Shown in pieces: positions 9,718-36,692 of a DNA stretch of 64,000 nt. A model generated the notes under the pieces. It was not told the DNA's origin. It was given only the letters and a program-made list of their open reading frames with translations, and ran no database searches. The translations under genes were made by a program, and so were the position numbers. This DNA is from Lachnoclostridium sp. (GTDB lineage: Bacteria > Bacteroidota > Bacteroidia > Bacteroidales > Muribaculaceae). Numbering within the stretch: position 1 is the stretch's first letter; each line of letters opens with the position of its first letter. The DNA lies in assembly GCA_023667185.1 (NCBI GenBank), contig JAMPAP010000002.1, positions 150,978 through 214,977 on the forward strand, in the 5' to 3' direction.

Positions 9718-9759
9718 TTTTCAAGTGCACAAATTTACTAATTCTGACTACTTCTTAAA

Positions 9760-12813: not shown

Positions 12814-12840
12814 GATTAACCTAAAGCATTATCCATCAAT

Positions 12841-15482: not shown

Positions 15483-16361
15483 ATGAAAACGTTTCTTTCA
15501 ATTGTAAGTGTAATAGGCACATTGCTTTGGGCTACAGCCTTTTTCTTCGGATTCAACTACTACGTTGGCGGCGCGCTGATGCTGTCAATACCATTGGCGG
15601 TTTTCCTCGCGCTGATCCTCGGCGGCTCTGTTTTCCTGATGATCAAGAAAAGCCAGGATAAGGACTCTGTATCGCGTCGCACCGAGCGCCTTGCCATTGC
15701 AGTATATGTGCTGTTCAGCCTCCTCTCAGTTGCCTTCATCGGCCACTTCGTGGATGTCACCCTCAATAAGAAGAAGGCTATTCAGGACGAGGCCCTCGCC
15801 CAGATCGAGGAACTGTCGCTCACATTCGATGCCGGCGATGGTTCGCCCCGCGCCGGTAGCTATGAGGAGTATGTGGCTGACAATGTGTATACTTACGGTA
15901 ATAACCTTGAAGGCCTTGAACCCGGCACTATTGATGCCAAAAAGAGCGAGCTGATGTCAGATCTGCTCGATGATGGCTTCGTTGAGCTTCAGGATTATGT
16001 AAACCAGGAACTTGACTACGCCAAGGGTACTATCGAAGGATGGAACTGGCTTTATGTGTCACAGCGTCTCGACCAGCTCGAAAAGTATAAGGGTGATTGG
16101 GAAACCAGCGTTGCGGTTCAGTCACGCAATTCTGACTATACAAAGAGCACCATGGACTTCTATAAGCCGACATCCGTCCACAACAACTTCGAGATCTTCA
16201 ACGGCCTTAGAACCCTCGACTTAGCCGGATGCTTCAACATCTACACCATCCTCCTCGTGGTAGTGCTCCAGTTCATGATGATCTTCATCTACTTCGCCGC
16301 CCGTCCCAACCGTATGCACGGCCCTGAAAAGCCTAAAGGCTCTGAAGTTGAATCTTGGTAA
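15483..16361 (+). CDS. Integral membrane protein (3 N-terminal TM, soluble loop of about 150 aa, C-terminal TM); no recognised family
   Basis: Hydrophobic segments VIGTLLWATAFFFGF, LMLSIPLAVFLALILGGSVFLMI, LAIAVYVLFSLLSVAFIGHFV and IYTILLVVVLQFMMIFIYFAA. Confidence 0.65.
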   Translation: MKTFLSIVSVIGTLLWATAFFFGFNYYVGGALMLSIPLAVFLALILGGSVFLMIKKSQDKDSVSRRTERLAIAVYVLFSLLSVAFIGHFVDVTLNKKKAIQDEALAQIEELSLTFDAGDGSPRAGSYEEYVADNVYTYGNNLEGLEPGTIDAKKSELMSDLLDDGFVELQDYVNQELDYAKGTIEGWNWLYVSQRLDQLEKYKGDWETSVAVQSRNSDYTKSTMDFYKPTSVHNNFEIFNGLRTLDLAGCFNIYTILLVVVLQFMMIFIYFAARPNRMHGPEKPKGSEVESW

Positions 16362-16412: not shown

Positions 16413-17954
16413 ATGCCATTCGATCATACAAAACTATCAATTTATACAGTGCCTCAGCTCATTGAGTTTATGAAGTCAGGTGAAGTAACTTTTGAAGAAC
16501 TTCAGCAACTCGGTCTTCCATATTTCAAGCAGGATGAGATACGCAAATTCCTCGCTGAAAAGGATATATGGGAAGCCGCCAAAATGACTCAGGAAGGTAT
16601 CAACAACTATCTTGCCACTTATCCCAACGGCTTCTTCGTGGATGAGGCCGGTGCAGCAATGACTGCTGCAAAAGAAGAAGGAGTTTGGCAGTGGGCTTGC
16701 GACGAAGATAATGTTGCAGCCTATAAGCGCTACCTCAGCAAATATCCTACGGGCAAGTATGCTATTAAAGCCGAAATGAGAATTGAAGAACTTGAGGAGA
16801 TAGAGAAAAATCTGAAGGAGGAGATTTTCAATGATATGCGCGAGAACTTCTGGAACTATTCTTATATGAAGATGCGCCAGCTCTATAATCCCCAGCCTCT
16901 TACTCCAGAGCAGAAAGACTTCCTCGCTTCGCAGGATGATGCTTATTCACGATTTGTAGCTAACGGGTTGAAACTGACTCATCAGGATCTGATCGATAAT
17001 GGTGTAGTTCCTGAGGGCGTCACCCAGTCAGAAGTTTCTTCACCTGAGTTTACGATGCCTGCTACTAAAATTGAAGAACTCGGTATGTTCCCCAAGGATC
17101 GCACTGACATATTCTTCCTCGGTGTGCCTCGTTCGGGTAAGTCTTCAGTTTTATCGGGTGTGATTTATCAGCTTTGGCGCGATGGTTTTGCCGGCTATGA
17201 GCCTCAACTTGTAAATGGTGTAGACCCTTGTATGGCCTATTATCAGGGTCTTATCCGTGCGGTTGCCACCAAGAAGCCGCCGGTAGGTACGGCTACTGAT
17301 ACAGTGTCGTTCATGAAAATAGACCTTGTGCATGGTAAGCGTCGCAACAAGCTGACTATTGTCGAGATGGCAGGTGAAGCTTTTAAAAGAGCTGCCGAGC
17401 GTATTGCCAAAGGTAATGGAAATCAGGAAGAAGTGTGGAAGGAACTTGGCGCCGAACAGTGCTTAAGAAGCAAGAATCAGAAGATGCTCTTCTTTGTGCT
17501 TGACTATAGTGCTGTCAAGGGTATAAATGAGGCATGCTCCGCATTTGATCAGCTCGAGATCCTTGAATCAGCTCTCCGAACCTTGAGTACCGATGGCCCT
17601 GACCCCCAAAATCCTCGCAAGGGTTGTACAATGAGCCGTGTTGAAACTGTAGCCGTGCTTGTGACAAAAAGCGACCTTATGCAGCAGTCAACAGTGCAAG
17701 GACGTCTTGCCGAGGCAAGAGCCTATATGGAAGATAACTTCAAGAACTTCATGCGTGAACTGATGGATATGTCACGTGAATTTGGTTGCAACAGGGTTAA
17801 CGATTACCGTCCTTACTTCCTTACTTTCAGCCTCGGAAATTTCTACGTAGGAAATACTGTCGTATTTAATCCTGATGATTCCAAACGAATTATTGACTTT
17901 ATCCGTACGGCTACTCCATCAGAATCGATTGATCGTTTCCGCTTCTTTAACTAA
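16413..17954 (+). CDS. TRAFAC-type GTPase-like protein with a helical N-terminal region (two YxxxYPxG repeats)
   Basis: G1 FFLGVPRSGKSSVL (about 17120), G3-like LTIVEMAGEAF and G4 VLVTKSDL. It is a paralog of 28332..29456. Confidence 0.65.
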   Translation: MPFDHTKLSIYTVPQLIEFMKSGEVTFEELQQLGLPYFKQDEIRKFLAEKDIWEAAKMTQEGINNYLATYPNGFFVDEAGAAMTAAKEEGVWQWACDEDNVAAYKRYLSKYPTGKYAIKAEMRIEELEEIEKNLKEEIFNDMRENFWNYSYMKMRQLYNPQPLTPEQKDFLASQDDAYSRFVANGLKLTHQDLIDNGVVPEGVTQSEVSSPEFTMPATKIEELGMFPKDRTDIFFLGVPRSGKSSVLSGVIYQLWRDGFAGYEPQLVNGVDPCMAYYQGLIRAVATKKPPVGTATDTVSFMKIDLVHGKRRNKLTIVEMAGEAFKRAAERIAKGNGNQEEVWKELGAEQCLRSKNQKMLFFVLDYSAVKGINEACSAFDQLEILESALRTLSTDGPDPQNPRKGCTMSRVETVAVLVTKSDLMQQSTVQGRLAEARAYMEDNFKNFMRELMDMSREFGCNRVNDYRPYFLTFSLGNFYVGNTVVFNPDDSKRIIDFIRTATPSESIDRFRFFN

Positions 17955-17972
17955 CAAAACACGATTTTACTA

Positions 17973-20900
17973 ATGATCCAAGATATAGGTTTAGTAATCT
18001 GGGGCTGCAAAGGCGGATGCCGCACGTTCTGCAACAATCGCGTCATTAACGTCGAGGAGCCCGTCATTCGCCAGACTTTAAAAGATGTTCGTTCATCAAT
18101 ATATTTTAAGCGTTCCGGCCTTGACTATTATGCAGTGGAGTTTACGCAGCGCTACAAGGTGTATACCCACTACCGCTCGTCGAACGACTCCGGAGGTGGT
18201 GCATTTATCGCCATAACGATTTATGTACCTCACAATCTTATGATTAAAAATGTCCGCTCGATTCTCGACGAGATGATTGTGCTTTACTTCAAGGAGTACA
18301 TGAACCCGATGTCCTACACTCCGCTCCCCGGCAAGTATGACGACATCAATATGTTCCTGCGCATACTCGATGAGCATCAGAATGATATCGTCACTGATCG
18401 CCGCGGCTATGCTTACCATCCCTCAGAGCAGGATGATCGCCCTCAGATTATCAAGTATAATGATGTAACTGAGATAGATAAGTATTTCGAAAATCCTTAT
18501 CATAAGGAATTTTTCGCCTGCCAGGAGGTAATGTTCCTGCGTAGCGAATACTACGACCGTCCACAGGAATTTGACATCGACTTCGTGCAGCGGCTCCAGC
18601 TCATCGACAAGGTGTCAGAGTCAGTGCGCATGAACCGTCTGCTCCCGTTTGACAAGCCCGGGAAGAAGCTCAGTCGCCTGATAATTAATGGAGATGACTT
18701 TACCAATGATAAGGATGGCGCGTCGCTCGACAAAAAGGACCTCGTCAGCTTCACCATCGAATCCGCCGACGATCGATATGAGCCGATGAAGGCTGACAAC
18801 ATCACCGTCGAAGATATGCTCCGGCGTAGGTTGATTCGCAAGAAAGGTGATGATTACGAGTGGGATGACATTATTCTCGACAAACGCACGTATGAGTTGA
18901 AAGTAAGTGCCTCGCCTGAGAGCAGTGTCAGGATGCGCGACTTCGCTGCCCACCTTCAGCTCGTTATAGGTAAAGGCAAATATCATGCAACGGTGATGGC
19001 TGATGGTACGGCTCGATTCCTTTTGCGAGGCCCCGAGGTTGACCAGGAGTGTACTCTCGTATTCGGGTATGACGAAAAGACCGATCTGCCAATCCAAAAG
19101 GTTGTTCCCGCGCAACATCTTGACAATGGCCTCACCGTAGCAGCCGACGAGCATCAGTTGAAGGTGAAATTAGAAGGCTTTGATGGTGATAGTCCTCTCG
19201 TTGAGGCAGAGGTCAAGTTGGCCGGCGACACTGTCTATACTCCTATTGAAGATAATAAGATATATACACCTGTAATCAATGGTGAGCACGCCACTGTAGG
19301 CATCAGAGCCCGGGATTGTAACGTCAAATTCAATGGCGATGCATGGGTGGTTACGCCCACAGTTGTCAGGGTTAAAGTGTTCATCCCCAAGGAAATATCC
19401 GGCTTGTTAAAGCGTATAGGAGCAAAGGTGTCATTTAATGGCAAAACTTATGGCATTAATGACTCGGGTAAGGTATCGCTTCCTTATGGTTGGGAAGAAA
19501 ACGGCGAAATGCCTGAAATTCAGCTGACTGATGAAAGCGGGGTGGTTAGACAGCCGATGAACTACGAAGGTGGATACCTTCGCTTTACCGGATGTGTGAT
19601 CTCAAACAAGACACGCGAGGCAGTAAAGCTATCGATTAACGGAGAAGAGAAAACATTTAAGGCACGTACTGAATTTTTTCACTACAACGTCGACGGCAAA
19701 TATAACATTGATTTTGCCAATCCTTTAGATAAGGATCTCATGAAGATCTCTTCCTCGCAAAAGGATGGATTCACTTACTATGTCGTTGAGCCAAAAGATC
19801 GTGACATCGTTGTAATTCCCGGAGGAGACTCTCACTCTGGCAACTCCAAGTCTAAGGATAAGAACGATAGTAAGGCTGATAAAAAACTGCCGTTCGGCGG
19901 TAAAGGTCGTATTCTCTTCCACGCTTGTAAGGGATACTTTACTTTTGAAGGTGAAGACAGAATTAAATTCGATAAGACGATCGAAATCACAGTCAAACAG
20001 CAAGTATATAAGATTTTTGATCCAGGCAATAGAGAAGTGGGTTCTATCAATGTTTCAAATCCATGCGATTATACTACCGGACAATTTGATGTGAAGTATA
20101 AAGAAGAAAATGGATTGAAAATATGGGAAGTAACTTATCGCAAAACATTTATTGACAAATTCATTGACTTTGTTACCTCGAAGCTCGGTCTTGGACTGAT
20201 CGGTCTCCTGGTGGTATTGGTAATTGGAGGCTGGATTGCCTGGCCTCACCTCTTCGGCGCAAAGGAATACACAGCAACTATCACCTTCACCACCGATGAT
20301 CCCATTGCTTCAATTACGGTGGTGAAGCCGGAGAATGGAATTACGATTACCCCCAGTGAAAGCACCATCACCATTAGACGTAGCAAGGACGACAAGAACC
20401 AATTTGCCGGAACCGCATTGCTTAAATTCTCGTACAAGGATGAAGGCGATACCGAAAAGATGCTGAAAGATCTGCCCGACGTTGATATGAAATCTCTCCG
20501 TGCGGTTCTCAGCGAAAACCATGAGAAAGATGCCTCCACTGCATTTACGGCAGCTGCGCCTCAGTCACCGGCTCATGTTGAGTATCTTGACATAACGTCG
20601 GTTACTCCTCTTGACTCAGCCAAAGTCGCTAACTTCCAAACGCAATATCAAGGTTCAAATTACGAGAAGAAGTTAACCGAGTCTTATGGCAAACAAGTGG
20701 CAGCCGAAGAGGAAGAGAAGGCTAAAAGAAACGCAGAAGAAGCCTCTCATCAAAGTCTCGTTGATAAGTATAACAAGCTCCTTGAAAAACTGAATAGTAT
20801 GGATGTTATGGCTTCAGATGTCGCAGTAATTGAGGCTTTCGAAACTGTGCATAGGAAAGACCTTGCAAGGGAAATCGCAGCCAATCGCGCCAAAGTCAAG

Positions 20901-21086
20901 GCTTACAAGGGTTTCTTTAAACTAGATGACTCTCCATCAAAGACATCGTATCTACAACAGTTTACCCATGAGCAGCAGGAGGCATGCAAGTATTACATCA
21001 AGTATTATAATAAGAATAATAAGAATGACACGATACGCGACTTCAGCTATGCAAAAAAACGGGCTAAAGCAATGGGTATTTTATAA
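17973..21086 (+). CDS. Large single-pass membrane protein (about 735-aa beta-rich cytoplasmic part, TM, about 280-aa periplasmic helical part); no recognised family
   Basis: The TM segment LGLGLIGLLVVLVIGGWIAW has basic residues on its N-side. The pre-TM module, TM and C-terminal domain are paralogous to the next gene. Confidence 0.7.
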   Translation: MIQDIGLVIWGCKGGCRTFCNNRVINVEEPVIRQTLKDVRSSIYFKRSGLDYYAVEFTQRYKVYTHYRSSNDSGGGAFIAITIYVPHNLMIKNVRSILDEMIVLYFKEYMNPMSYTPLPGKYDDINMFLRILDEHQNDIVTDRRGYAYHPSEQDDRPQIIKYNDVTEIDKYFENPYHKEFFACQEVMFLRSEYYDRPQEFDIDFVQRLQLIDKVSESVRMNRLLPFDKPGKKLSRLIINGDDFTNDKDGASLDKKDLVSFTIESADDRYEPMKADNITVEDMLRRRLIRKKGDDYEWDDIILDKRTYELKVSASPESSVRMRDFAAHLQLVIGKGKYHATVMADGTARFLLRGPEVDQECTLVFGYDEKTDLPIQKVVPAQHLDNGLTVAADEHQLKVKLEGFDGDSPLVEAEVKLAGDTVYTPIEDNKIYTPVINGEHATVGIRARDCNVKFNGDAWVVTPTVVRVKVFIPKEISGLLKRIGAKVSFNGKTYGINDSGKVSLPYGWEENGEMPEIQLTDESGVVRQPMNYEGGYLRFTGCVISNKTREAVKLSINGEEKTFKARTEFFHYNVDGKYNIDFANPLDKDLMKISSSQKDGFTYYVVEPKDRDIVVIPGGDSHSGNSKSKDKNDSKADKKLPFGGKGRILFHACKGYFTFEGEDRIKFDKTIEITVKQQVYKIFDPGNREVGSINVSNPCDYTTGQFDVKYKEENGLKIWEVTYRKTFIDKFIDFVTSKLGLGLIGLLVVLVIGGWIAWPHLFGAKEYTATITFTTDDPIASITVVKPENGITITPSESTITIRRSKDDKNQFAGTALLKFSYKDEGDTEKMLKDLPDVDMKSLRAVLSENHEKDASTAFTAAAPQSPAHVEYLDITSVTPLDSAKVANFQTQYQGSNYEKKLTESYGKQVAAEEEEKAKRNAEEASHQSLVDKYNKLLEKLNSMDVMASDVAVIEAFETVHRKDLAREIAANRAKVKAYKGFFKLDDSPSKTSYLQQFTHEQQEACKYYIKYYNKNNKNDTIRDFSYAKKRAKAMGIL
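20757..21086 (+). repeat. Direct DNA repeat, copy 1 (3' end of the 1037-aa gene)
   Basis: Collinear, gap-free similarity to 21656..21985 at a constant offset of 899 nt. Example: ctgaatagtatggatgttatggcttcagatgtcgcagtaattgaggctttcg versus ctgaatagaatggatgttatggcaacagatgtcgcagcaattgaggctttcg. Confidence 0.85.
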
Positions 21087-25216: not shown

Positions 25217-26443
25217 ATGAGATTACTATCAGAAGAGTCGTTCAGCCGCATTGAGCCGCTGATTGCCGATGATTATAAACGCACCCGCAGCCGCCTGGCG
25301 CTGTTGTTGTCCCCGCAAGACTGCGAAGTGTTTGCCCAGGTGGACCTGCTGCCCAACCGCGGCAAGTGGGTAGCCGATGTCCCCGGCCAGCTGATGCCCT
25401 ATTCCGAGGCTTCGGCCGCCGAGCGCGAGCAGATCGCAGCCTATCTCGAGGATAAGAAGCGCGCCATAGCCGCTGCCATCGGCGACAAGGTCCCCTACGT
25501 CAACGACCTTTTCCGTATCCCTGATGAAAACCAGATCTTCTGGTTCAAGGACAGCACCGGCAATGTCCGCGTAGTGCTGTCGCAGTGGGGATTCCGCCGC
25601 ATCAATGCTCCCGGCGACGTCGACGTGATAGAATTTCTCATCTCCCAGCCCCGCACAATGTCAATATGCGAGGTTGTGGCCAAGGGCGTATACTCTGACG
25701 GACAGCCTTACGCCTGCCAGCCCATCACGCTCTCGATTTTCGGCAATACATCTGAGGTAAAAACCGCTACTGATGGTACTTACTTCATAGGCAAAGTGCC
25801 CATGAACAAGGAATTCTCAATCACGGCCGATGGACAGATATACGACTTCGTGACAAGTGCTGACCGCGAAAGCTACGACTTCATTGTCAATCGCTACACC
25901 GGGTGGAGTGTCCGCGTCGTTGGTCAGAAAGGTGAGTCTGTAGCCAACTATCCGGTGAAGATCAACGGCCGCGACTGCATGACCGATGCTGACGGCATCA
26001 TCGCTGCCGATAATGTCATGATGACCGGCGATGACCGCCTGCAGGTAGAAGCTGAATATGGCGAACCGATGGAATACACCCTCTCTCCAGTCAGAGAAAA
26101 CAACGACTTCGAATACCGCGTTACTCTCCCTGTAAAAGAGGAAGTGAAGCCCCCGCTGCCCCCTGTGCCCCCCGAACCGCCGGTTAAGAAACCCGTCAGA
26201 GTGCATCTGCTCGACCTTGACGGCTCGCCCCTTGACTTCGTTGATGTATTCATTGACCAGCCCAACGGCACCACTGTCACCGCCACAACCGATGCCGACG
26301 GCTGGGCCACCTTCCCACGCGACACCTTTGTTGACAAGAAGAAGTCAAAGCTCCGCTTCAAGCTCACCAAGGAGTATCAGGAGCGTCGCCGCCAGATGAA
26401 AGAACAGCAAAAACAGCAACAAACTTCACAGAATCATGGCTAA
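25217..26443 (+). CDS. Cytoplasmic protein: N-domain shared with the S8 protease, CarboxypepD_reg-like beta-sandwich repeats, Pro-rich stretch, basic tail
   Basis: SAAEREQIAAYLEDKKRAIAAAI...VRVVLSQWGF resembles SGAEREKYERILDKTMRSIARSV...RVVITEWGM in 12841..15438. Repeats of the type TDADG.. occur. Pro-rich stretch: PPLPPVPPEPP. Confidence 0.65.
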   Translation: MRLLSEESFSRIEPLIADDYKRTRSRLALLLSPQDCEVFAQVDLLPNRGKWVADVPGQLMPYSEASAAEREQIAAYLEDKKRAIAAAIGDKVPYVNDLFRIPDENQIFWFKDSTGNVRVVLSQWGFRRINAPGDVDVIEFLISQPRTMSICEVVAKGVYSDGQPYACQPITLSIFGNTSEVKTATDGTYFIGKVPMNKEFSITADGQIYDFVTSADRESYDFIVNRYTGWSVRVVGQKGESVANYPVKINGRDCMTDADGIIAADNVMMTGDDRLQVEAEYGEPMEYTLSPVRENNDFEYRVTLPVKEEVKPPLPPVPPEPPVKKPVRVHLLDLDGSPLDFVDVFIDQPNGTTVTATTDADGWATFPRDTFVDKKKSKLRFKLTKEYQERRRQMKEQQKQQQTSQNHG

Positions 26444-28325
26444 ATCTCAGGATATCAACTATCAGAAAAAATTCAAGTTTGACCCCCGGCAGGACGAATA
26501 CGAATTCCAGCTCAAGAAGAAACGTAACTGGTGGTGGCTGCTGTTGCTGCTGTTACCCCTTCTGCTGCTGATCCGCTGCGAGCGCGACATGACCATAACC
26601 GTGGTCGACGATGATACCGACGAGCCTATCGAAGGAGCCCAGCTCAACTTAAGGTACACTTCCCATTATCTGCTCAAAGACTGGAAATTCCTCCTCAACG
26701 AGCCGGTGGCGCGCGAGGCTATTACTGATGTCGACGGAGAAGCACGTTTCGAGAAGCTCCCCTGCAGCGTCTACTCCTACATATTCTATTGCCTGAGCCG
26801 CGCTGCTGTCACGGCCTCCGACCCTTGCCATGAACCGGCCTCGATAATGCCGCTGGTTCACTACACATGGAATGCCGAAATCCGCCTCAAAAAGCTCCTC
26901 ACTGACGTCACCGTCACGGTGGTCGATGATGAGACCTCTGATCCAATCCCGGGGGCTGTGGTCACAGTAACCACCGGCGAAGTCACTGATTCCGTAACCA
27001 CAGATGCCGCCGGGCGTGTCAAGCTCGAAAAAGTGCCTCACTGTGGTATTATCGATGTGCTGAAAGGCTCGGCCTTCGGCTACGCTGATACCTTGCGGCG
27101 CAACCTGCCCGTGGCGCTGCTCGAAGACCCTGACAGCGCTTATCTGCGACTCCGTCCCGTCAAGGAGCGCTTCACATTCTTCGTCAAAGATGTGGAGACT
27201 CGCGAGCCGATCCCCGGTGCAACAGCTGTGGTGACCCTCGACGACCCCCGATCCGGCTATCGCGGCACTCATGAATACAAGACCAACGTCGATGGCCGCG
27301 GCATGGGATTCTACGACGAAGGGTTTATCCTCTCGCGCCTCAGCATAAAGGCCTCAAAAGTGCATTACAACGATTCCACCCTGAAGGGTGACTACACTAT
27401 CGGTGAATTTATAAAACTGCCTGACTCGCTTCGCACCGTATGGCTGCGCCCGATGCCATTTAACACTGAATTCCAGTGTATCGACTCCCTCTCGCGCAAG
27501 CCCATACCGGGAGTGGAAAATGTGATCACTGTCACTGACCCTGCCGGAAATACCGAGACCTATACCGAGATATCCAACCGCAATGGCAAATTCCCCGTCC
27601 ATGCCAAGGAAGGCTCCAAGATACATATCGACTCGCGTCTCCCCGGCGAGTACAAGGACAAGGCTACTGACATCCCCTCCTACGACGGAAAAGAGGAGAT
27701 CATCGAAATGATGCCTGACGTCACTCCGCTTGACGTAGACATGGTGATGGTGATTGACAACACCGGCTCAATGTCAGGAACCATAGGTATGGTAAAGCGC
27801 AATGCCTCGAATTTCTATTCTGACCTCAACGAGGAATGTGTGAAACATAAACTGTATATCAACAAGTTCCGCCTGAAGGTGATCTCGTACGGCGACCTGT
27901 CAGAAAAGCCGTTCAATGTATCACCGCTATATGAATTACCTGACCAGACTGCTGCTTACAAAGCATTCGTAAGCTCAATTATAGCCGCCGGAGGTGGCGA
28001 TGAGCCTGAGGATGGATTGCAGGCCGTGCGCGACGCCATGTCGACATCCTGGGTAAGCGGGCCGCAGCTCAAGCGCCATGTGATCGTCGTGTACACTGAT
28101 GCTCCGACCCATAGTATGTCATCCGGCGACTTCGACGCCATTAAATCCAAATGGATGTCAATGGATCCCGATTCGCGGCGCATGATCCTCTTTGCCCCGG
28201 CTAAAGATTCATGGAACACGCTGGCCACCTGGCCTCAGGTAAGTCACGAGACCGGTTCGCTCTCGTCAGTGCTCGCCGGAACCGGTTACGCCAACGTCCT
28301 CGAAAATATCTGTAAATCACTCTAA
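26436..28325 (+). CDS. N-terminally anchored periplasmic protein: four CarboxypepD_reg-like repeats plus a C-terminal von Willebrand factor A (vWA) domain
   Basis: TM segment KKKRNWWWLLLLLLPLLLLIRC. Repeats are ITVVDDDTDEPIEGAQ, VTVVDDETSDPIPGAV, FFVKDVETREPIPGAT and FQCIDSLSRKPIPGVE. The MIDAS-like motif is VMVIDNTGSMSG (about 27750), followed later by GGGDEPEDG and VVYTDAP. Confidence 0.8.
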   Translation: MAKSQDINYQKKFKFDPRQDEYEFQLKKKRNWWWLLLLLLPLLLLIRCERDMTITVVDDDTDEPIEGAQLNLRYTSHYLLKDWKFLLNEPVAREAITDVDGEARFEKLPCSVYSYIFYCLSRAAVTASDPCHEPASIMPLVHYTWNAEIRLKKLLTDVTVTVVDDETSDPIPGAVVTVTTGEVTDSVTTDAAGRVKLEKVPHCGIIDVLKGSAFGYADTLRRNLPVALLEDPDSAYLRLRPVKERFTFFVKDVETREPIPGATAVVTLDDPRSGYRGTHEYKTNVDGRGMGFYDEGFILSRLSIKASKVHYNDSTLKGDYTIGEFIKLPDSLRTVWLRPMPFNTEFQCIDSLSRKPIPGVENVITVTDPAGNTETYTEISNRNGKFPVHAKEGSKIHIDSRLPGEYKDKATDIPSYDGKEEIIEMMPDVTPLDVDMVMVIDNTGSMSGTIGMVKRNASNFYSDLNEECVKHKLYINKFRLKVISYGDLSEKPFNVSPLYELPDQTAAYKAFVSSIIAAGGGDEPEDGLQAVRDAMSTSWVSGPQLKRHVIVVYTDAPTHSMSSGDFDAIKSKWMSMDPDSRRMILFAPAKDSWNTLATWPQVSHETGSLSSVLAGTGYANVLENICKSL

Positions 28326-28331
28326 ATCGAT

Positions 28332-29456
28332 ATGCCTAAAACCAATATGTCACCCGTCAAGGAGCAGCTTCTCCGCCACATGAAGGAAGCCCCGCAATAC
28401 TACCATCCGGCACTGTTGCGCGACATCCTTGACGGCCGACTTGGGGATGCTGACGACTACGCCCTCATGCCCGGCCCGATGAAGGAGTTCATCGAGTCAG
28501 GGCAGAGGCTTACGTGGGAGGAGATCCTTGGGGCCGGAGTGCTTCCCCGGCCGCTTCCCCGCGAGGTGGTGACCGCTGATGAGGATATGCGCCTACCCGT
28601 CTACTCCGTTAAGCAGTATGAGGGCGGCATCGTAGCTCCGCATCGCACTGACGTGTTTATCCTCGGCGTGGCCGGTACAGGAAAATCCTCTCTTGCCTGT
28701 AGCCTTATCCGCCAGCTCGTGGATGTGTGTGAGTATGAGTATCAGCCTATGAAGTCCTCGCCCGATGATGCCAAGACTGCTGATTATTATAATGCTGTCA
28801 TGGACATAACTTTGCGGTTCAACAAGCCCGTGGCTCCTTCGCTCAACGATAACCTACTTTTCACCCAGCTTCGCGACACCCATTCTCGCCGCCGCCTTAC
28901 CATTATTGACGGTGACAGCAATGATATGTCAGATCTGGCACGGATCAACACCCCTGACGGAGTGATATTCAAGAAATACAATATCTACCGTATCATGGGC
29001 AACCGCAACTCCAAGATCCTGCTACTGCTCTTCAACTATCGTCAGATCAAGACCTCCGGCCATCGCACCATGTTCAACCAGTCAATGCTCATCGAGCGCT
29101 TCCTCAATGCCATGACATCTGACGGATCACCCGATAATCCCGAAAAGGATAGCTCGTTCAGCCGATTGAAAGGACTGGTATTTGTGTTTACAAAGTGCGA
29201 CAATCAGGATCCTGACGCGCTGAATGTCATCAACCGGTTTCTTGAAGAGCATCTCAAGACTGTGATGATGCGGCTCGACATCATCAACCGCCGTTTCGGC
29301 ATCAACAAGGAGAATGGCTACCGCCCGTATATCCTCCCCGTTACCCTCGGGCAGTTTACCATCGGAAACACGTTCATCTACAACCCGGAAACATCCATAA
29401 ACCTTGCCAAACTTATCACCTCGATTACACCTACGCAGTGGCCCTGGCAATGTTGA
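28332..29456 (+). CDS. TRAFAC-type GTPase-like protein, paralog of 16413..17954, with a degenerate G3
   Basis: G1 FILGVAGTGKSSLA (about 28666) and G4 FVFTKCDN. The G3 position reads LTIIDGDSND, with no DxxG glycine. The C-terminus GYRPYILPVTLGQFTIGNTFIYNPETS matches DYRPYFLTFSLGNFYVGNTVVFNPDDS in the paralog. Confidence 0.65.
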   Translation: MPKTNMSPVKEQLLRHMKEAPQYYHPALLRDILDGRLGDADDYALMPGPMKEFIESGQRLTWEEILGAGVLPRPLPREVVTADEDMRLPVYSVKQYEGGIVAPHRTDVFILGVAGTGKSSLACSLIRQLVDVCEYEYQPMKSSPDDAKTADYYNAVMDITLRFNKPVAPSLNDNLLFTQLRDTHSRRRLTIIDGDSNDMSDLARINTPDGVIFKKYNIYRIMGNRNSKILLLLFNYRQIKTSGHRTMFNQSMLIERFLNAMTSDGSPDNPEKDSSFSRLKGLVFVFTKCDNQDPDALNVINRFLEEHLKTVMMRLDIINRRFGINKENGYRPYILPVTLGQFTIGNTFIYNPETSINLAKLITSITPTQWPWQC

Positions 29457-29494: not shown

Positions 29495-30949
29495 ATGTTA
29501 GATATAATCGCTAAAAACCCGTTCCGCATCCTCGGTGTCTACTCTGACTCCGGCCTGCGTGACATCGTGGCCAATCGCAACCGCATCAATGCCTTTGCGA
29601 AAGTGGGGAAGCCCTGTACGTTTCCTACTGATCTTGCCTCACTCGCCGGACCGGTTGACCGCTCGCCCGAATCAGTGCAGGCTGCTGACTCGGCTCTTAC
29701 CATCGATGCTGACAAACTGAAATATGCTACCTTCTGGCTTATGAAGGGGGAGCCGGCTGACGCTGACGCCCTCCGTATGGCCTCGGAAGGAAACATAGCC
29801 GGTGCGCTCGCCTCGCTCGAGAGCCGCAGCTCCATGGCCTCGCTTCAGAACCTTGCAGTCATCAGCCTGATGCGCAACGATATCCGCAAGGCTTCAGTGG
29901 CTTTCGCAAATATGACTGACCGCTATGCCGCAAACTTCTACTCGGCTATCGGACTCAATGTCGGCGGCACGGAAACTCTCGTGGATACATACGTGAAGAC
30001 ACTCCTGGAGAATGACAGCACGATCGATGCGGCCGTGTTTACCGGTAATGATTATCCCGCCTCGTGGAATGCAACTGTAAAAGACGTGGCCGCTGTGCCC
30101 GTCATCTCCCAGCTTGAGGCGTTGATAGCCGAGGCCCGCAAGTCGAAGGACGGCAGCCCCGTAGAGCGTCTCAAAGCCGGTATCAACCTCTCCAAGAAGT
30201 CAAAACCGCTGCTGATGAAGCTGCGCAATATGCTGACCACCAAAGATCTCAAACTCGTCAATATATCTGACAAGGTAGGCAACGAGGTGCTTCAGTGCGG
30301 TATCGACTTCTATAACGATTCTGACGACATTTCTACTGCCAAGGATGCCCTCGCTCTTGCCAAGGATGCCCGCATGATAGTGCTCGGCTCCATGGCCCGC
30401 CAGCGTTGCGACGAGAATATCAAGACCCTCGAAAACAATGCCGCTCTTATCCCGTCAGCCGCTATTCAGGCCGACGTTAATGCTATCAGTGTAGCTCTCA
30501 ACGACTTCACCTCCCACAACCAGTCGTTTGACTCGCTCATCAGCCTCCTTGACCTTGTAGAGCCTCACCTGAAGAAGATGAAGGACACTGTAGGTGAAAA
30601 TGATCCTATCTATATCAACTGGTCAACAAACGTAGTGAATGTAGCTCTTAACCTGATCATCGACAAGGTTAATGCTGCACAAAATGTAGCAGGCAATGGC
30701 TCTAAACAGCTTCAGGACTATGTCACATATGTCGCAATGGCTCACGGTTTCATGAATCGTCTGTCGAAATACGCGATGGATCAGGCGTGCCGCAATCGAT
30801 TCAATACCAATAACAATACACTCAATGATCTTTATGCCCAAACCAAAAATGTCAATACCGGCGGCAGCAGCGATTCCGGCTTCAGCAGCTGCTTTATACA
30901 GATCCTGATTTATTTGGGTATCATGGCATTAGTGGGAATGTGTAGTTAA
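29495..30949 (+). CDS. Tail-anchored helical protein with a J-domain-like N-terminus that lacks the HPD motif
   Basis: NPFRILGVYSDSGLRDIVANRNRINAF resembles J-domain helix I/II (DYYEILGV...). No HPD tripeptide follows. C-terminal TM: FIQILIYLGIMALVGM. The family call is weak. Confidence 0.45.
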   Translation: MLDIIAKNPFRILGVYSDSGLRDIVANRNRINAFAKVGKPCTFPTDLASLAGPVDRSPESVQAADSALTIDADKLKYATFWLMKGEPADADALRMASEGNIAGALASLESRSSMASLQNLAVISLMRNDIRKASVAFANMTDRYAANFYSAIGLNVGGTETLVDTYVKTLLENDSTIDAAVFTGNDYPASWNATVKDVAAVPVISQLEALIAEARKSKDGSPVERLKAGINLSKKSKPLLMKLRNMLTTKDLKLVNISDKVGNEVLQCGIDFYNDSDDISTAKDALALAKDARMIVLGSMARQRCDENIKTLENNAALIPSAAIQADVNAISVALNDFTSHNQSFDSLISLLDLVEPHLKKMKDTVGENDPIYINWSTNVVNVALNLIIDKVNAAQNVAGNGSKQLQDYVTYVAMAHGFMNRLSKYAMDQACRNRFNTNNNTLNDLYAQTKNVNTGGSSDSGFSSCFIQILIYLGIMALVGMCS

Positions 30950-30969
30950 TAAAAAATTTAATACCAGAT

Positions 30970-31899
30970 ATGAAAAAATATTTTACAATGCTTGCTCTTG
31001 CAGCGGCAATGACAATGTCGGCACAGATGCCGGGTATCCCTTCAGAAAATCTCGCTGATTCGCTTAAGGCGGTTAATAAGGAGCTCGTTACCATTAACGA
31101 TGCTGTAAAAAAGAATGCCGAGGATATAAAGGCAGTCAATGAGTGCATTGACGCCACTGAAAAGGCTTTCGTTGCCAAAACTGACTCAATGACAGCCGAG
31201 GCCTCCGCGCTCGCGGCTCGCGTTGACGATATCAACTCTACTCTCAATGCCGCCATCGAGAAGGTGAACGAGACCCTCGGCACCGAGATCCGTACCACCA
31301 AGACTGAGGTGACAACGCGCACCGGCTCGCTGCTGACATACGGTATTATTGCGGCCATCGTGCTACTCCTTCTTGTTGTGGCTGCATATATGATACTTCG
31401 CAAACGTATCGGCGACGGCAGCGTGGATCTTGACACGGTCAAGGAGGCTAACAAGCAACTTCAGGAGCAGTCAGTCAGCCTTGACAATAAGCTTACTGAA
31501 GTGCTTCAGCAACAACTCGCCATGGCTGATACGCTGAAAAAGGCCACGGCAAACAGCTCTTCCGAGCCTGATCACTCTCTGGAGCTATCGATTGCCAACG
31601 AGCTCGCCCGCATAGAGCAGAACCTCGCTTTCATGGATCCCAAAACCAAGGGTGTGTCACAGCTTAAAAACCGTGCAGCGGCTATCAGCGAAGCTCTCAA
31701 AAAGAAGGGCTACGAGATTGTGCCGATGCTCGGCCAGGATTACAAGGAGGGCATGAACGTGGAGGCCACGATGGAGGAGGATGACACTCTCGAGCCCGGT
31801 AAGCAGATTATTCGCCGCGTTAGCCGTCCGGCCGTGCTCTACAAAGGATCTATGATACAGCCCGCTCAGGTAGTGGTGGCTTTCAACCCCGAAGACTAA
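30970..31899 (+). CDS. Membrane-spanning protein with a cytoplasmic GrpE-like C-terminal domain
   Basis: It has a signal peptide (MLALAAAMTMSAQ), a periplasmic coiled coil, and the TM segment LLTYGIIAAIVLLLLVVAAYMIL followed by RKR. The C-terminus KKGYEIVPMLGQDYKEGMNVEATMEEDDTLEPGKQIIRRVSRPAVLYKGSMIQPAQVVVA follows the GrpE beta-domain pattern (G.E.I...G...dp..h.A.......PG.V..V...GY...G..iRpA.V.V). Confidence 0.6.
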   Translation: MKKYFTMLALAAAMTMSAQMPGIPSENLADSLKAVNKELVTINDAVKKNAEDIKAVNECIDATEKAFVAKTDSMTAEASALAARVDDINSTLNAAIEKVNETLGTEIRTTKTEVTTRTGSLLTYGIIAAIVLLLLVVAAYMILRKRIGDGSVDLDTVKEANKQLQEQSVSLDNKLTEVLQQQLAMADTLKKATANSSSEPDHSLELSIANELARIEQNLAFMDPKTKGVSQLKNRAAAISEALKKKGYEIVPMLGQDYKEGMNVEATMEEDDTLEPGKQIIRRVSRPAVLYKGSMIQPAQVVVAFNPED

Positions 31900-31920
31900 A
31901 AAGAAATAAATTTACATTAT

Positions 31921-34422
31921 ATGGCATCACTTAAAATAATATACGGTATCGACCTCGGTACCACCAACTCGGCAATCACCCGATTCGAAAATGGTAAGGC
32001 CGTAGTAAAGAAAAATTCGCTCCAGAGTGACACCACACCATCTGTTGTGGCATATCGCGCCCAGGGTAAGGCCCCTTCGGTAGGCTCACGTGCAAAAACT
32101 CAGCTTGAGAAGGATCACGTGATGGCCTTCCGCAAGCCGGGCTATAAGTCAAACGTATTCCATGAGTTCAAGCGCGTGATGGGCACTGACCATAAGTTTT
32201 TCTCTTCAGCGCTTAATGCCGAGCTGACTCCTGAGGATCTTTCGGCCGAAGTGCTAAAAGAGCTGCGTAAGAATATCCTTGATGATGAGGTCTCATCGGC
32301 CGTAATCACCGTCCCTGCGATGTTTAATAACACTCAGAAGGATGCAACCAAGCGAGCTGCAAAACTCGCCGGATTTGACCATGTAGAGCTTATTCAGGAA
32401 CCGGTGGCCGCATCTGTGGCTTATGGTTTGTCCTCAAAGATGAAGAATGCTTACTGGGTGGTGTTTGACTTCGGTGGCGGTACATTTGACGCTGCTCTGA
32501 TGCGTATCACTGACGGTATCATGCAGGCTATAGACACTGCCGGTAACAACAAGCTCGGCGGCAAGGATATCGACAACGCTATAATCGAGCAGATTATGAT
32601 CCCATATTTCCGCTCCAACTATACAATTGAAAACATCCTGACCAACAATCGCAAGGCCTTTGCCGAGGTGTGGAAGGCAAAGGCTGAGGAGGCGAAGATT
32701 AACCTTTCGTTCAACTCATCGTATGAGCTCGAGACTGACCTCGGCGAGGATTACGGTACTGATGATCTCGGCGATGAGCTTGCCCTCTCGCTCACCATCA
32801 CTCAGGATGATCTGGAGCGTGTGGCTGCGCCCATCTATCAGAAAGCCATCGATATAACCAAGGAACTGCTTGCCCGCAACGGTATCAACGGCAAGGATCT
32901 CGGCGCTCTTATCCTCGTGGGCGGTCCTACACATTCGCCCATTGTGCGTCGTATGCTCCGCGAGCAGGTGACTCCGAATGTCGACACTTCTATTGACCCG
33001 ATGACCTGTGTGGCTGCCGGGGCTGCCATCTATGGCTCTACAATAGATGTCCCTGAGGAGATTGCTGACACCAAGCGTGACCGCTCCAAGGTGCAGCTCG
33101 CCGTGACTTATCAGAGTACCTCAGTCGAGACCGAGGAGTGGGTGTCAGTATCGCTGCTCCGTGACAAGTGTGACAACTACACCGAGCCTACGGTGAGAGT
33201 GGAATTTGCCCGCACTGACGGCCTGTTTACCTCGCCCGCCTCAGAAGTGGATGCAGCCGGCGACGTTGTATCGCTGATGCTCAAGCCGGATGCTACAAAT
33301 ACGTTTGATATCCGCTGCTACGACAGCCGCGGCACACGCCTCGAGTGTGAACCATCGCAGATCTCCATCATTCAGGGTGTGGCCGGATTAGGCGATGCTG
33401 TCATCCCTATGGCTCTCGGTATCGGTGCTACCAATAAGGATAATGTCGAAGTATTCATCCCCATTCAGGGTCTCGAGAAGAGCCGCAAGCTCCCCGCTTC
33501 GGGAAGTACTCGCTCTAACGGACTTCGCACACAGAAGGATATTCGCCCAGGTGTGGAGTCTGACACCGTCAGAATGTCTCTTTATCAGACCGAGGATGTG
33601 GGCGAAAACGTCAGAGTGCTCTATTGCCAGCGCATCTACGATGTACTGGTCACCGGCGAGGATGTACCCGTACTCGTGCCTGCCGAGAGTGTGATAAATA
33701 TCAACCTCCATGCCGAGCGCTCGGGCACAATCGATAAGTTTGAGATCGAGATTCCGAGCATCAACTTCACTCTCGACCTTACCGAGCGCATGAGCAAGAG
33801 CACCACATCAGCTCTCTCCGAAAGCTTCCTTGTGCATGAGATATATGATGCCAAGACCCGCGCCCGCCGCCTTGATAATGCCGCCTTGATCAACCGCATT
33901 GACCTTCTTGAGCAGCGCCTGAAGAATGCTGCCGGCGACCGCGATGCCCTCGATGGTATCTTTGCCGAGCTCCAGTCAATCGGTCGCGAGATCGATCATC
34001 AGATGTCGCTCGGCGAATGGGATCGCGAGGCTGCCCGACTTAAGTCAATGTTTGCCGAACTCTCAAACGATAACGTCAAGTATGGCAACGCTGATACCAC
34101 CGCTCTAATCGAGCAGATCAAGAAGGAGATGGACAAGGTGCTCGAAAGCCGTAACGTCCAGCTTGCCAAGGATCTTTACAGCCAGATGTGGAATCTCGAC
34201 TTCCGCATCGCTGAGGTGGAATTCTATATCGCATGGATACAGCAATGGAACAGCGAGTTTGCCCGCAAGAACTGGACTAATCCCTCGCGTGCCCGCCAGC
34301 TCGTTGACAATGGTCTGTCCATCATCCGCCAGGGCTCGCCTACGGCCGATGCTCTCCGCCCCATTGCCTTTGAGCTCAACGATATGCTACCCGAACACCA
34401 GAAAACCGATACTCTTCACTGA
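31921..34422 (+). CDS. Non-canonical Hsp70 (DnaK-family) ATPase, 833 aa
   Basis: IYGIDLGTTNSAI, VITVPAMFNNTQKDATKRAAKLAGF, VFDFGGGTFDAAL and LVGGPTHSPIVRRML. SBD-beta-like: IPMALGIGATN...VFIPI. An extra segment of about 115 aa lies between the NBD and SBD, and the helical C-terminus is long. Confidence 0.9.
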   Translation: MASLKIIYGIDLGTTNSAITRFENGKAVVKKNSLQSDTTPSVVAYRAQGKAPSVGSRAKTQLEKDHVMAFRKPGYKSNVFHEFKRVMGTDHKFFSSALNAELTPEDLSAEVLKELRKNILDDEVSSAVITVPAMFNNTQKDATKRAAKLAGFDHVELIQEPVAASVAYGLSSKMKNAYWVVFDFGGGTFDAALMRITDGIMQAIDTAGNNKLGGKDIDNAIIEQIMIPYFRSNYTIENILTNNRKAFAEVWKAKAEEAKINLSFNSSYELETDLGEDYGTDDLGDELALSLTITQDDLERVAAPIYQKAIDITKELLARNGINGKDLGALILVGGPTHSPIVRRMLREQVTPNVDTSIDPMTCVAAGAAIYGSTIDVPEEIADTKRDRSKVQLAVTYQSTSVETEEWVSVSLLRDKCDNYTEPTVRVEFARTDGLFTSPASEVDAAGDVVSLMLKPDATNTFDIRCYDSRGTRLECEPSQISIIQGVAGLGDAVIPMALGIGATNKDNVEVFIPIQGLEKSRKLPASGSTRSNGLRTQKDIRPGVESDTVRMSLYQTEDVGENVRVLYCQRIYDVLVTGEDVPVLVPAESVININLHAERSGTIDKFEIEIPSINFTLDLTERMSKSTTSALSESFLVHEIYDAKTRARRLDNAALINRIDLLEQRLKNAAGDRDALDGIFAELQSIGREIDHQMSLGEWDREAARLKSMFAELSNDNVKYGNADTTALIEQIKKEMDKVLESRNVQLAKDLYSQMWNLDFRIAEVEFYIAWIQQWNSEFARKNWTNPSRARQLVDNGLSIIRQGSPTADALRPIAFELNDMLPEHQKTDTLH

Positions 34423-36179
34423 TGATTTACAAAGCTAAAGATACAATACTTGACCGCTACACTGTCCTTTTCCCGATAAAGGAAGGAGCCTACGCCGAGT
34501 CGTATCGCGTGAAAGATGCTGCCGGCAAGCGGTATTTCTTCAAGCTGATTGACCGGTCCAGGCTTCAGCCCGAGCAGATCGATGACTATGGGCGTGTGCG
34601 CGAAATAGAGATCGTAAAGGATTTGGCTCACCCATGCCTCCCGGCTATGATCGAGTCGGGCGAGGTGACTATCGGCGGCAAGGAGTACGAATACCTTGTC
34701 AACAAATATGTGCCCTCCGAGACCCTTGCTGACCGCCTTCAGCGCGCGCAGACCCTCAAAATGTATGATATCAAGGCCATAGCTCGCGGAGTGCTCTCGG
34801 CTCTGACAGCGCTGCATGAGAATGACAATCCGGTGATCCACAATGAGGTCACGGCTCTGAATGTGCTGATGGATCTGTCGGTCGACGATCCGTCGGCTGT
34901 ATGCCTTATCGACTTTGGCTATGCCCGCCATACTGACGAGGCTCATGGCCAGTCGATCGAGGGGCTCAACTGGTTTTACCTCGCTCCGGAACGGTTTGAC
35001 GGCGCTTCAACGGTGCAGAGCGACCTCTATTCAGTAGGAGCTCTGCTATATCAGCTGACCTTCGGGCTGCTCCCCTGGTTCTGCGACCTCTCGACCATAG
35101 CTCCCGAGAAGCGTAAGCAGTATATCCTGCGCCAGAAGCACACCGCATTGCTGATGCCCGTAGTGGATAAGTTTGAGCTCGACGATCGTTTCCTCAACAT
35201 CCTCCGCAAAGCTCTTGCTGCTGATGTCGACGAGCGTTTTCAGTCGGCCCGGGAGTTTCTTGACGCCATCGAGGGAAAAGGCGAGGTGATAGCGCCGTCG
35301 CAGAATCCTGCTACGGCTGATGATCGCCGCGATGCTTTCTCAGCTTCGCGTCAGCGCTCCGGCAACGGGTTTGAGGATGTGGCAGGTATGACAGAGCTTA
35401 AGGAAATGCTCCGCAAGCGGGTGCTCAACATCCTGCGCGATACCGAGAAGGCAAAGCGTTACAAGCTTCAGATACCCAACGGTATACTCTTCTACGGCCC
35501 TCCCGGATGCGGCAAGTCGTTTCTTGCTGAGAAGTTTGCCGAGGAAGCCGGCTACAATTTCAAGCTCGTGAAGGCATCTGACCTGGCGTCTATCTATGTT
35601 CACGGCTCGCAGGAAAAGATAGGCCAGCTCTTTGACGAGGCACGCAAGAATGCGCCTACGATCCTCTGCTTCGACGAGTTTGACGCTCTGGTGCCGGCTC
35701 GCGGTACGCAGGGCGCCGAGCACCAGTCGGGCGAGGTCAACGAGTTTCTTACCCAGCTCAACAACTGCGGCGAGACCGGCGTCTTCGTCATCGCGTCGAC
35801 CAATCGTCCCGACATGATCGACCAGGCCGTGCTGCGTCGCGGCCGTATTGACCAGGTGATTTTCATCCCGGTGCCTGATGCCGAGAGTCGTGCCGCGATG
35901 TTTGAGCTCCATCTCAAGGGTCGCCCCTTCGACACCTCGATCGACTATTCAGCACTCGCTGCCTTGACTGAGAATTACGTGGCAAGTGACATAGCCTACG
36001 TGGTCAACGAGGCCGCAGCCCGCGCAGCGTTTGCTGACGAGAAGATCACTTCCGAGCATCTCGAAGAGGTAATCTCCGAGTGCCGCCCTTCGCTCAACGA
36101 GGGCGCGCTGCGCAACTACGACAAGCTACGCGAAAAAATGGAAGGCATCGTGGAGTCACGGCGCCGCATAGGTTTTTAA
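34422..36179 (+). CDS. Fusion of a Ser/Thr-kinase-like domain (atypical catalytic loop) and a classical-clade AAA+ ATPase
   Basis: Kinase-like motifs: YFFKLI (beta-3 Lys), IHNEVTALNVLMD in place of HRDLKPxN (34839..), DFGYA (34911..) and YLAPERF. AAA+ motifs: Walker A GPPGCGKS (about 35496), Walker B ILCFDEFD, sensor-1 IASTN and the Arg-finger region DQAVLRRGRID. Confidence 0.85.
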   Translation: MIYKAKDTILDRYTVLFPIKEGAYAESYRVKDAAGKRYFFKLIDRSRLQPEQIDDYGRVREIEIVKDLAHPCLPAMIESGEVTIGGKEYEYLVNKYVPSETLADRLQRAQTLKMYDIKAIARGVLSALTALHENDNPVIHNEVTALNVLMDLSVDDPSAVCLIDFGYARHTDEAHGQSIEGLNWFYLAPERFDGASTVQSDLYSVGALLYQLTFGLLPWFCDLSTIAPEKRKQYILRQKHTALLMPVVDKFELDDRFLNILRKALAADVDERFQSAREFLDAIEGKGEVIAPSQNPATADDRRDAFSASRQRSGNGFEDVAGMTELKEMLRKRVLNILRDTEKAKRYKLQIPNGILFYGPPGCGKSFLAEKFAEEAGYNFKLVKASDLASIYVHGSQEKIGQLFDEARKNAPTILCFDEFDALVPARGTQGAEHQSGEVNEFLTQLNNCGETGVFVIASTNRPDMIDQAVLRRGRIDQVIFIPVPDAESRAAMFELHLKGRPFDTSIDYSALAALTENYVASDIAYVVNEAAARAAFADEKITSEHLEEVISECRPSLNEGALRNYDKLREKMEGIVESRRRIGF

Positions 36180-36200
36180 ACTATTCACAAAGTGTAAATC

Positions 36201-36692
36201 ATGATAAAAGATAATTTGAATCTCGCTACAGCCTTCGCATTTATGGCATGCGACGGCGATATCTCGCCCGATGAGGTGAAGTTGATAAAGCAGATGAATG
36301 CTGACGGCATCATCCCGTGTGACGATGTCGACGATAAGCTCGAGCAGCTACTCGGGCAGCTCAACGCCCGCGGTCACGGCTTTATGAAAGACTATTTCCA
36401 GGCCGTCACTGACGCTGACCTTGACGCCGACGCGGCTCTCGCGCTACTCAAGATTGCCGTCGCCACCATCTATGCCGACGAAATCGTGGAATACTCCGAG
36501 GTGAAGTTTTTCCGAGCCGTGCGCTCGCATATCCTCTCAATGACCGATGAGCAGATCCTCGAGGCTATCCCCGAGGTTGAGGACTTTTGGCTGGAGTCTG
36601 ACGTCAAGTCGGCCGCTCCGGGCTACCTCGACCAGCAGTATATGGAAGCTGTCGAGCTACCGCAGTTTGACATCGCATCATTGAAGAAGTAA
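36201..36692 (+). CDS. TerB-like (tellurite-resistance TerB / DjlA N-domain type) protein
   Basis: Two copies of the TerB-type motif: FMACDGDISPDEVKLIKQM and IYADEIVEYSEVKFFRAV. All-helical, 163 aa. Confidence 0.65.
   Translation: MIKDNLNLATAFAFMACDGDISPDEVKLIKQMNADGIIPCDDVDDKLEQLLGQLNARGHGFMKDYFQAVTDADLDADAALALLKIAVATIYADEIVEYSEVKFFRAVRSHILSMTDEQILEAIPEVEDFWLESDVKSAAPGYLDQQYMEAVELPQFDIASLKK

Follow-up and report, generated by a model that had tools for sequence, protein, structure and literature searches.

A switch-II-degenerate GTPase paralog encoded at the junction of a Srf-type operon and an Hsp70 cassette in Bacteroidales

Why should a single operon encode two paralogous GTPases, one complete and one with a degenerate switch II, and do the two proteins work together? 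The question is raised by a 64,000-nucleotide stretch of contig JAMPAP010000002.1 (assembly GCA_023667185.1, positions 150,978 to 214,977; hereafter the window), deposited as Lachnoclostridium sp. and placed by GTDB in the Muribaculaceae of the Bacteroidales. A single long plus-strand operon in the window carries GTPase A (open reading frame (ORF) 16413..17954) and GTPase B (ORF 28332..29456); both ORFs were confirmed in the 64-kb window, and exactly two copies of this gene type, A and B, occur in the genome. An earlier note on this DNA, made from the sequence alone, had described A and B as a small GTPase-like pair that could form a heterodimeric switch. Our analysis favors, with moderate confidence, the reading that B binds nucleotide with little hydrolysis and serves as a regulatory paralog docked on A, probably linking an Hsp70 cassette to the GTP cycle of A.

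The translation of A contains RTDIFFLGVPRSGKSS, TIVEMAGE, VTKSD, and the tail YRPYFLTFSLGNFYVGNTVVFNPDD, preceded by two N-terminal YxxxYPxG repeats (YLATYPNG and YLSKYPTG), and that of B contains RTDVFILGVAGTGKSS, TIIDGDS, FTKCD, and the tail YRPYILPVTLGQFTIGNTFIYNPET; every motif quoted in the earlier note, including the shared C terminus, was found in these translations. In BLASTP, A and B were 27% identical over ~380 columns (E 7e-40), far beyond chance. The homology begins upstream of the P-loop, with residues 9–100 of B aligned with residues 134–228 of A, and the paralogy therefore includes the helical domain before the G domain along with the G domain itself. The proposed paralogy thus stands, but "small" is a loose description of G domains of ~270 amino acids (aa) that are enlarged by insertions.

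The motif states were compared across the family by using MAFFT and hidden Markov model (HMM) alignments of 98 A-type and 11 B-type proteins and a superfamily set of 214 proteins; the B clade (n = 11) consists of five close orthologs plus P0104–P0109 from an exhaustive profile search. The P-loop, GxPRSGKS in the A type, is kept in the B clade as GxAxxGK[ST], and the G4 motif, TKxD in the A type, is TKCD in the B clade and decays in its most divergent members (P0106–P0109). At switch I, a Thr that is at least 90% conserved in the A type (T293 in A) is matched by Ser or Thr in 11/11 B-type proteins. The loss of this Thr from B was therefore rejected, and only a second, less conserved switch-I Thr is missing from the B type. 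The two types differ at Walker B and switch II, where the A type reads hhVE[ILM][SA]GE, with Glu in 96/98 proteins (E318 in A), whereas the B clade keeps an Asp (D193 in B; 11/11) and has lost the Gly-Glu from all of its members. E..GE was found in 167 and D..GE in 9 of the 214 superfamily proteins. Because IDGDS is invariant in the five close B orthologs (the remaining B-type proteins read IDSGR, IDAGR, or IDGGS), the degenerate switch II reported for B holds in the family-wide alignment and is not an artefact of a by-eye register. The Gly that the earlier note had placed at a DxxG position of A (EMAG) is present as well; rather than a weakened form of DxxG, however, the motif is the Glu-type Walker B (ExxGE) by which the DO-GTPases are defined.

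A, the constant member of the operon, has all four G motifs and an ExxGE switch II. B keeps the residues for binding guanine nucleotide and Mg (P-loop Lys/Ser, switch-I Ser/Thr, Walker B Asp, and TKCD) but has lost the γ-phosphate-sensing switch-II Gly and the Glu that corresponds to Gln61 of Ras. In the Ras superfamily, the amide of the switch-II Gly contacts the γ-phosphate. With G1 and G4 kept and the G3 Gly and catalytic residue lost, B has the sequence pattern of a nucleotide-binding pseudo-GTPase; since the rest of the nucleotide site is intact, B is predicted to bind nucleotide without efficient hydrolysis and would most likely be a GTP-binding subunit with little or no intrinsic hydrolysis. 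The suggestion that B is a regulatory or pseudo-GTPase is, on this sequence pattern, supported. Rnd proteins and RhoH are nucleotide-binding pseudo-GTPases that, like B, keep G1 and G4 with the switch-II catalytic residues replaced, from which binding without hydrolysis would be predicted, although they belong to eukaryotic, unrelated lineages. The possibility that B is a decaying pseudogene was rejected, given its intact frame, its invariant motifs, and a clade that keeps the same gene order down to ~30% identity.

The AlphaFold2 models, built with family alignments, showed a confident P-loop GTPase fold for both proteins, with a predicted local distance difference test (pLDDT) score of 91.1 and a predicted template modeling score of 0.90 for B and a pLDDT of 92.3 for A; by these models, A and B are TRAFAC-class Ras-like G domains. 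The best structural matches were Gtr1/Rag, Arf, SR-beta, and G-alpha, with YcjX for A, and the Foldseek matches listed for B were GTPases or GTPase-containing complexes (eIF5B, EF-Tu, SSU-processome, 90S pre-ribosome, EngB, GIMAP2, and Der). A profile search of PDB sequences returned only noise at the level of the P-loop. In the model, nearly all of A upstream of its G domain was helical, consistent with the helical N-domain with two repeats that had been noted for it; the pre-G domain of B was also helical, and both proteins ended soon after alpha5.

To model the complex, residues 130–513 of A were co-folded with B, each chain with its own alignment, alongside three controls. The interaction prediction score from aligned errors (ipSAE) of A:B was 0.80, 0.80, and 0.79, compared with 0.00 for the best of the three controls; the pLDDT of the partner was 86 or higher, and at least 87% of the contacts were common to the runs. 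In calibration, 58 of 80 solved complexes but only 2 of 110 mismatched pairs attained this score, a comparison that is rough here since custom alignments were used. The model supports, but does not demonstrate, binding of B to A. The predicted interface is asymmetric (head-to-tail). On A it comprises the end of alpha1 and a strand-helix insert before switch I (residues 254–285), plus two tail residues, and on B a segment after switch II (206–211), alpha3 with the family-wide invariant Asp-Gly loop (248–270), and a helix (309–321). The alpha3/DG-loop/alpha4 face of B would thereby dock onto the insert of A beside switch I.

Anchor-gene scans for related loci returned only three loci from genome contigs and five from metagenome contigs. 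Related loci take two forms. The short form has A without B and ends after a VWA gene (L005, L006, and L012, with L011 and L015 as partial variants), whereas in the long form a 629-aa gene, B, and a five-gene cassette with Hsp70 are appended in the same order (L003/L010, L007, L008, and L009), an order kept even where B is only ~30% identical. Because the short form has A without B, and B is found only alongside the appended cassette, A is a constant core component of the operon and B an accessory one, present exactly where the cassette is attached, at the junction. L016 and L017 were considered as loci lacking A and rejected, as a distant A-type gene was found after the S8 gene in both (HMM E 1e-46). 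The five-gene cassette was also found on its own, in 6/400 sampled Bacteroidota genomes; in 6/6 of these, tblastn and HMM searches of the fetched flanks found no A- or B-type GTPase, indicating that the cassette needs no such GTPase. When 400 genomes drawn from across the order were searched with B, neither paralog turned up in any genome but that of the window, so that co-occurrence was not countable there. Since B is confined to loci in which this cassette, which also occurs separately, is attached to the Srf operon, the likeliest role of B would be to tie the activity of the cassette to the GTP cycle of A.

The origin of B was traced in a maximum-likelihood tree of the G domains of 70 proteins (IQ-TREE, LG+G4, with support from the Shimodaira-Hasegawa-like approximate likelihood ratio test). 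The B clade formed one group (support 89), sister to P0126 (support 95) and nested within the A-type radiation; B descends from a duplicated A-type gene and has since lost the N-terminal repeat domain. P0126 is degenerate too, with Arg in place of the P-loop Lys and a Walker B of IDHDG, and its gene directly follows the 3′ end of an A-type gene and precedes a gene like that of the 1037-aa protein downstream of A, with no cassette beside it. In a second, independent degenerate lineage (P0112/P0113), the P-loop Lys is changed to His or Arg and switch II reads VEYGDG or VEFGGG, in the same tandem position; the P0126 and P0112 contigs span only ~2 kb, with identifiable flanks. Furthermore, L026 (994–5109) has three tandem GTPase genes between the 292-aa-like and 1037-aa-like genes. 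The first two are A-type (483 and 477 aa) with the P-loop and TKSD intact, ExxGE being confirmed in the first, and the third, followed by the 1037-aa-like gene, encodes a short, degenerate protein (388 aa) with Arg for the P-loop Lys. These degenerate copies, like B, lack the N-terminal repeat domain of A. Operons of this family thus repeatedly pair a complete GTPase with a degenerate paralog of reduced length, which argues that the partner of B is A.

A number of points weigh against a role of B as the regulatory partner of A. Most A-type operons (the short-form loci and partial variants above) have A without B, and B always adjoins the Hsp70 cassette, ~10 kb from A, an adjacency that by itself points to the cassette as the partner. 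The predicted interface is no more conserved than the remaining domain (0.42 vs 0.58 in A and 0.55 vs 0.67 in B). Close cousins of a true partner also pass the complex score and, as A and B are paralogs, the high A:B value could stem from a homotypic contact of A with itself that B imitates by its likeness to A. Some GTPases without the canonical switch-II residues still hydrolyse GTP through residues supplied in trans (dimer-activated GTPases). Finally, paired DO-GTPases were predicted in 2020, and our literature search found no biochemical test for any family member. The heterodimeric switch of the earlier note is therefore favored by the contrast between the A:B score and its controls and by the tandem degenerate paralogs, but not as an obligate pair, given that most A-type operons lack B; B also travels with the Hsp70 cassette.

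The strongest competitor, which we nevertheless consider unlikely, is that B serves the Hsp70 cassette as its own GTP switch, working with cassette proteins instead of A, its similarity to A being common descent only. In each of the five long-form loci, B lies between the cassette and the 629-aa VWA protein, which agrees with this, as do the Hsp70-GrpE and kinase themes described among DO-GTPase systems (PMC7159879). However, the cassette occurs without an A- or B-type GTPase within reach in 6/6 other Bacteroidota genomes, the sister of B, P0126, stands in tandem with A-type and 1037-aa-like genes and not with the cassette, and the A:B model passes its controls. It is less likely still that B has full GTPase activity despite its non-canonical switch II, with catalytic residues contributed in trans on dimerisation with A or another B. 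The kept P-loop, Walker B Asp, switch-I Ser/Thr, and TKCD would allow this, and the invariance of DGDS suggests function over decay; but the signature Gly-Glu of 167/214 members is absent from the whole B clade, and its replacement is non-uniform (DGDS, DSGR, DAGR, and DGGS) and accompanied by the G4 decay in P0106–P0109, which fits relaxed catalytic constraint. Very improbable is the view that A and B do not interact, each being homo-oligomeric and sharing one operon only through the fusion of two gene modules: the guanine-cytosine (GC) content differs (~0.44–0.46 around A vs ~0.52–0.55 around B), A is usually alone, and the asymmetric interface could equally be homotypic, but the score of 0.80 against control values of 0.00, the recurrence of tandem complete and degenerate paralogs in related operons, and the nesting of B in the A-type radiation of the same operon family all speak against it.

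The placement of the pair among known GTPases was also assessed. Within the TRAFAC class, A and B belong distantly, at the periphery, to the YcjX-like DO-GTPases ("double-GTPases"), because the Pfam matches of their relatives, the ESM Atlas neighbors of B, and the published features of the branch agree. A scored 17.8 bits against PF19993 (DO-GTPase2; E 0.0027), under the gathering cut-off of 27, and B matched no DO-GTPase family in Pfam and gave only P-loop noise; of 50 relatives, however, 32 matched PF19993 and 21 matched PF19975 (DO-GTPase1) at E below 0.01 (best 5e-7), and some carry these annotations in a precomputed table. The nearest ESM Atlas clusters of B carry both families (features 0.95–0.96; structure TM 0.62–0.68). 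PADLOC and NCBIfam gave no meaningful match for A, B, or their uncharacterised neighbors.

According to the genomic survey that described them (Kaur, Burroughs, Iyer, Aravind 2020, eLife 9:e52696, PMC7159879), DO-GTPases have a conserved Glu in Walker B and, in 60% of members, one or more N-terminal zinc ribbons, which are not strictly defining; 38% of the systems have two paralogous copies, read by the authors as suggesting dimers. In the same survey, the GTPase gene of DO-GTPase/GAP1 systems is followed by one for GAP1 (GAP1-N1 or -N2, -M, and -C), and the systems also contain GASH or FNIII. In keeping with the passages of that paper considered here, the locus has the TRAFAC G fold, the Glu-type Walker B (in A, not in B), two paralogous copies per operon, and a membrane-associated multi-gene neighborhood with vWA, Hsp70/GrpE, kinase, peptidase, and TIR. 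Unlike the described systems, A and B fall under the Pfam gathering scores and are without a zinc ribbon (no such family was reported, and the pre-G regions are helical), the operon is headed by SrfB/SrfC/S8 ("Srf" is absent from the main text of PMC7159879), and the second copy lies eight genes away from the first and has a degenerate switch II, a degeneracy that those passages do not discuss. No neighbor matched GAP1, GASH, GAAD, or FNIII in Pfam at E ≤1, although a divergent GAP1 could escape, the GTPases themselves being sub-threshold.

YcjX and the Rag/Gtr GTPases were also compared with the pair. The profile of the family of A and B gave no sequence match to YcjX at E ≤1, and YcjX was not among the best 50 structural matches for B. 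The partner of YcjX is the membrane protein YcjF, not a degenerate paralog. The Rag/Gtr proteins (Gtr1-Gtr2 and RagA-RagC) dimerise by C-terminal roadblock domains, which A and B lack, and both Rag subunits keep working switches; the structural alignments to Gtr1/RagA cover the G domains only (chain residues 4–190 of ~290), and the resemblance is at the level of the fold.

The literature search found no paper linking SrfB/SrfC with phage defence or with these GTPases, nor one describing this sub-Pfam-threshold Bacteroidales branch, its SrfB/SrfC/S8 operon setting, or a switch-II-degenerate copy at an Hsp70-cassette junction. DO-GTPase systems are a large, purely computational prediction, and the Srf (SrfABC) proteins have been without a mechanism for over two decades; the locus brings both together and provides a simple pair for testing, in which a complete GTPase and a switch-II-degenerate one have an interface predicted with confidence. 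Should the predictions hold, the pair would reveal how an asymmetric live/dead GTPase switch is built and how Hsp70 cassettes are wired to switches, and would provide an entry point to Srf operons and Hsp70-based cassettes in gut Bacteroidales. A bolder form of the preferred reading, possible but doubtful, is that B is a GTP-locked docking paralog, that is, the duplicated switch subunit of a conflict or envelope system, whose switch II was disabled and which became a physical adaptor plugging a separately occurring Hsp70/GrpE/AAA+ machine into a Srf-type NTPase operon; if true, modular bacterial systems would have here a general way of acquiring additional modules.

Table 1. Coordinates in the window of the two GTPase genes, their motifs, and the neighboring genes.
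Feature	Position	Strand	Remarks
GTPase A, 513 aa	16413..17954	+	N-terminal helical domain with two YxxxYPxG repeats, aa 1–130; pre-G helical domain, aa 134–228; G domain, aa 229–504
A P-loop GVPRSGKS (aa 237–244)	17121..17144	+	G237, G242, and K243 conserved in 97–98/98 A-type proteins
A Walker B/switch II VEMAGE (aa 317–322)	17361..17378	+	Glu-type Walker B, then Gly-Glu
A G4 motif TKSD (aa 418–421)	17664..17675	+	A-type alignment
GTPase B, 374 aa	28332..29456	+	Pre-G helical domain, aa 1–100; G domain, aa 103–368; without the N-terminal repeat domain of A
B P-loop GVAGTGKS (aa 112–119), intact	28665..28688	+	G112, A114, G117, and K118 invariant in 11/11 B-type proteins
B degenerate Walker B/switch II IDGDS (aa 192–196)	28905..28919	+	Asp kept; Gly at +3 and next Glu lost
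B G4 motif TKCD (aa 287–290)	29190..29201	+	B-type alignments
B C-terminal tail WPWQC	29439..29453	+	WPWxC conserved among close B orthologs
Operon head: SrfB (PF07520), SrfC-like Virul_Fac (PF10139), S8 subtilase	6565..15438	+	Same order in L005, L006, L016, L017
292-aa protein	15483..16361	+	Always before the A-type GTPase in related loci
1037-aa protein	17973..21086	+	Always after the A-type GTPase(s); GAP1 position of DO-GTPase systems, no detectable GAP1 homology
629-aa CarboxypepD_reg + VWA protein	26436..28325	+	Directly before B at all B loci
Five-gene cassette downstream of B: 484-aa helical, 309-aa GrpE-like membrane, Hsp70, kinase-like/AAA+, TerB-like	29495..36692	+	

Outside the G motifs, the invariant residues common to both clades are R105, D107, K228, Y236, D264-G265, and N325 (P0001 numbering), among them the R-T-D just before strand 1, the Lys at the start of strand 4, and the Asp-Gly loop after alpha3, which falls inside the predicted A:B interface. 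Four close B orthologs are 410–414 aa long compared with 374 aa for the B of the window, which misses ~40 N-terminal residues (window 28332–28350; L003:10001–10141), and the divergent members of the B clade (402–418 aa) are also ~30–45 residues longer. The alignment gap falls after the first six residues of the window B, and this copy accordingly has either a shifted start or an N-terminal deletion specific to its lineage. An invariant TPTQWPWxC, whose Cys is the final residue, closes the close B orthologs, and other A- and B-type proteins finish in short aromatic or hydrophobic tails (GLFGIF, RFRFFN, and GIF); these short tails may be membrane-binding or partner-docking elements.

The operon is an extended Srf-type, envelope-associated one. 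It runs from SrfB, the SrfC-like protein, the S8 subtilase, the 292-aa protein, A, and the 1037-aa protein through four unknown proteins and then an MG4-like protein (408 aa) to the CarboxypepD_reg-VWA protein (629 aa) and B, followed by the 484-aa protein, the GrpE-like membrane protein (309 aa; a weak GrpE match), Hsp70, the kinase-like/AAA+ protein, the TerB-like protein, and a TIR-Sel1 protein. A and B occupy compositionally different segments: the GC content is ~0.42–0.49 at 16–25 kb (A and the unknown genes) and 0.51–0.57 at 25–38 kb (B, the cassette, and TIR), except for ~0.48 in the 30–31 kb bin. The C-terminal part of the 1037-aa protein recurs in a 296-aa protein (56% identity in tblastn; window 20757–21086 vs 21656–21985), with the same duplication signal in related loci, and BLASTP found no similarity between the 1037-aa and 484-aa proteins and so no sign of a duplicated GTPase-plus-partner module.

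Among the related loci, the other long-form members have a separate ~365-aa VWA gene between the MG4-like and 630-aa genes, which is absent from the window (window 25217–28325 vs L003:5749–10001). In L016 and L017 (~8500–9950), TIR/Sel1-like sequence lies between the A-type GTPase and the MG4-like gene, a position that suggests that effector modules move within these operons. The metagenome-assembled genome contigs of L010 and L011, whose proteins are up to 86% identical to those of the window, bear the title "uncultured Staphylococcus sp.", a label that looks wrong for a Bacteroidales-type gene set. After the operon, and outside the findings on A and B, an ORF of 524 aa (38746–40320) gave only a sub-threshold RHS-repeat match (E 0.12), and the GC content falls to 0.35 by 40–41 kb.
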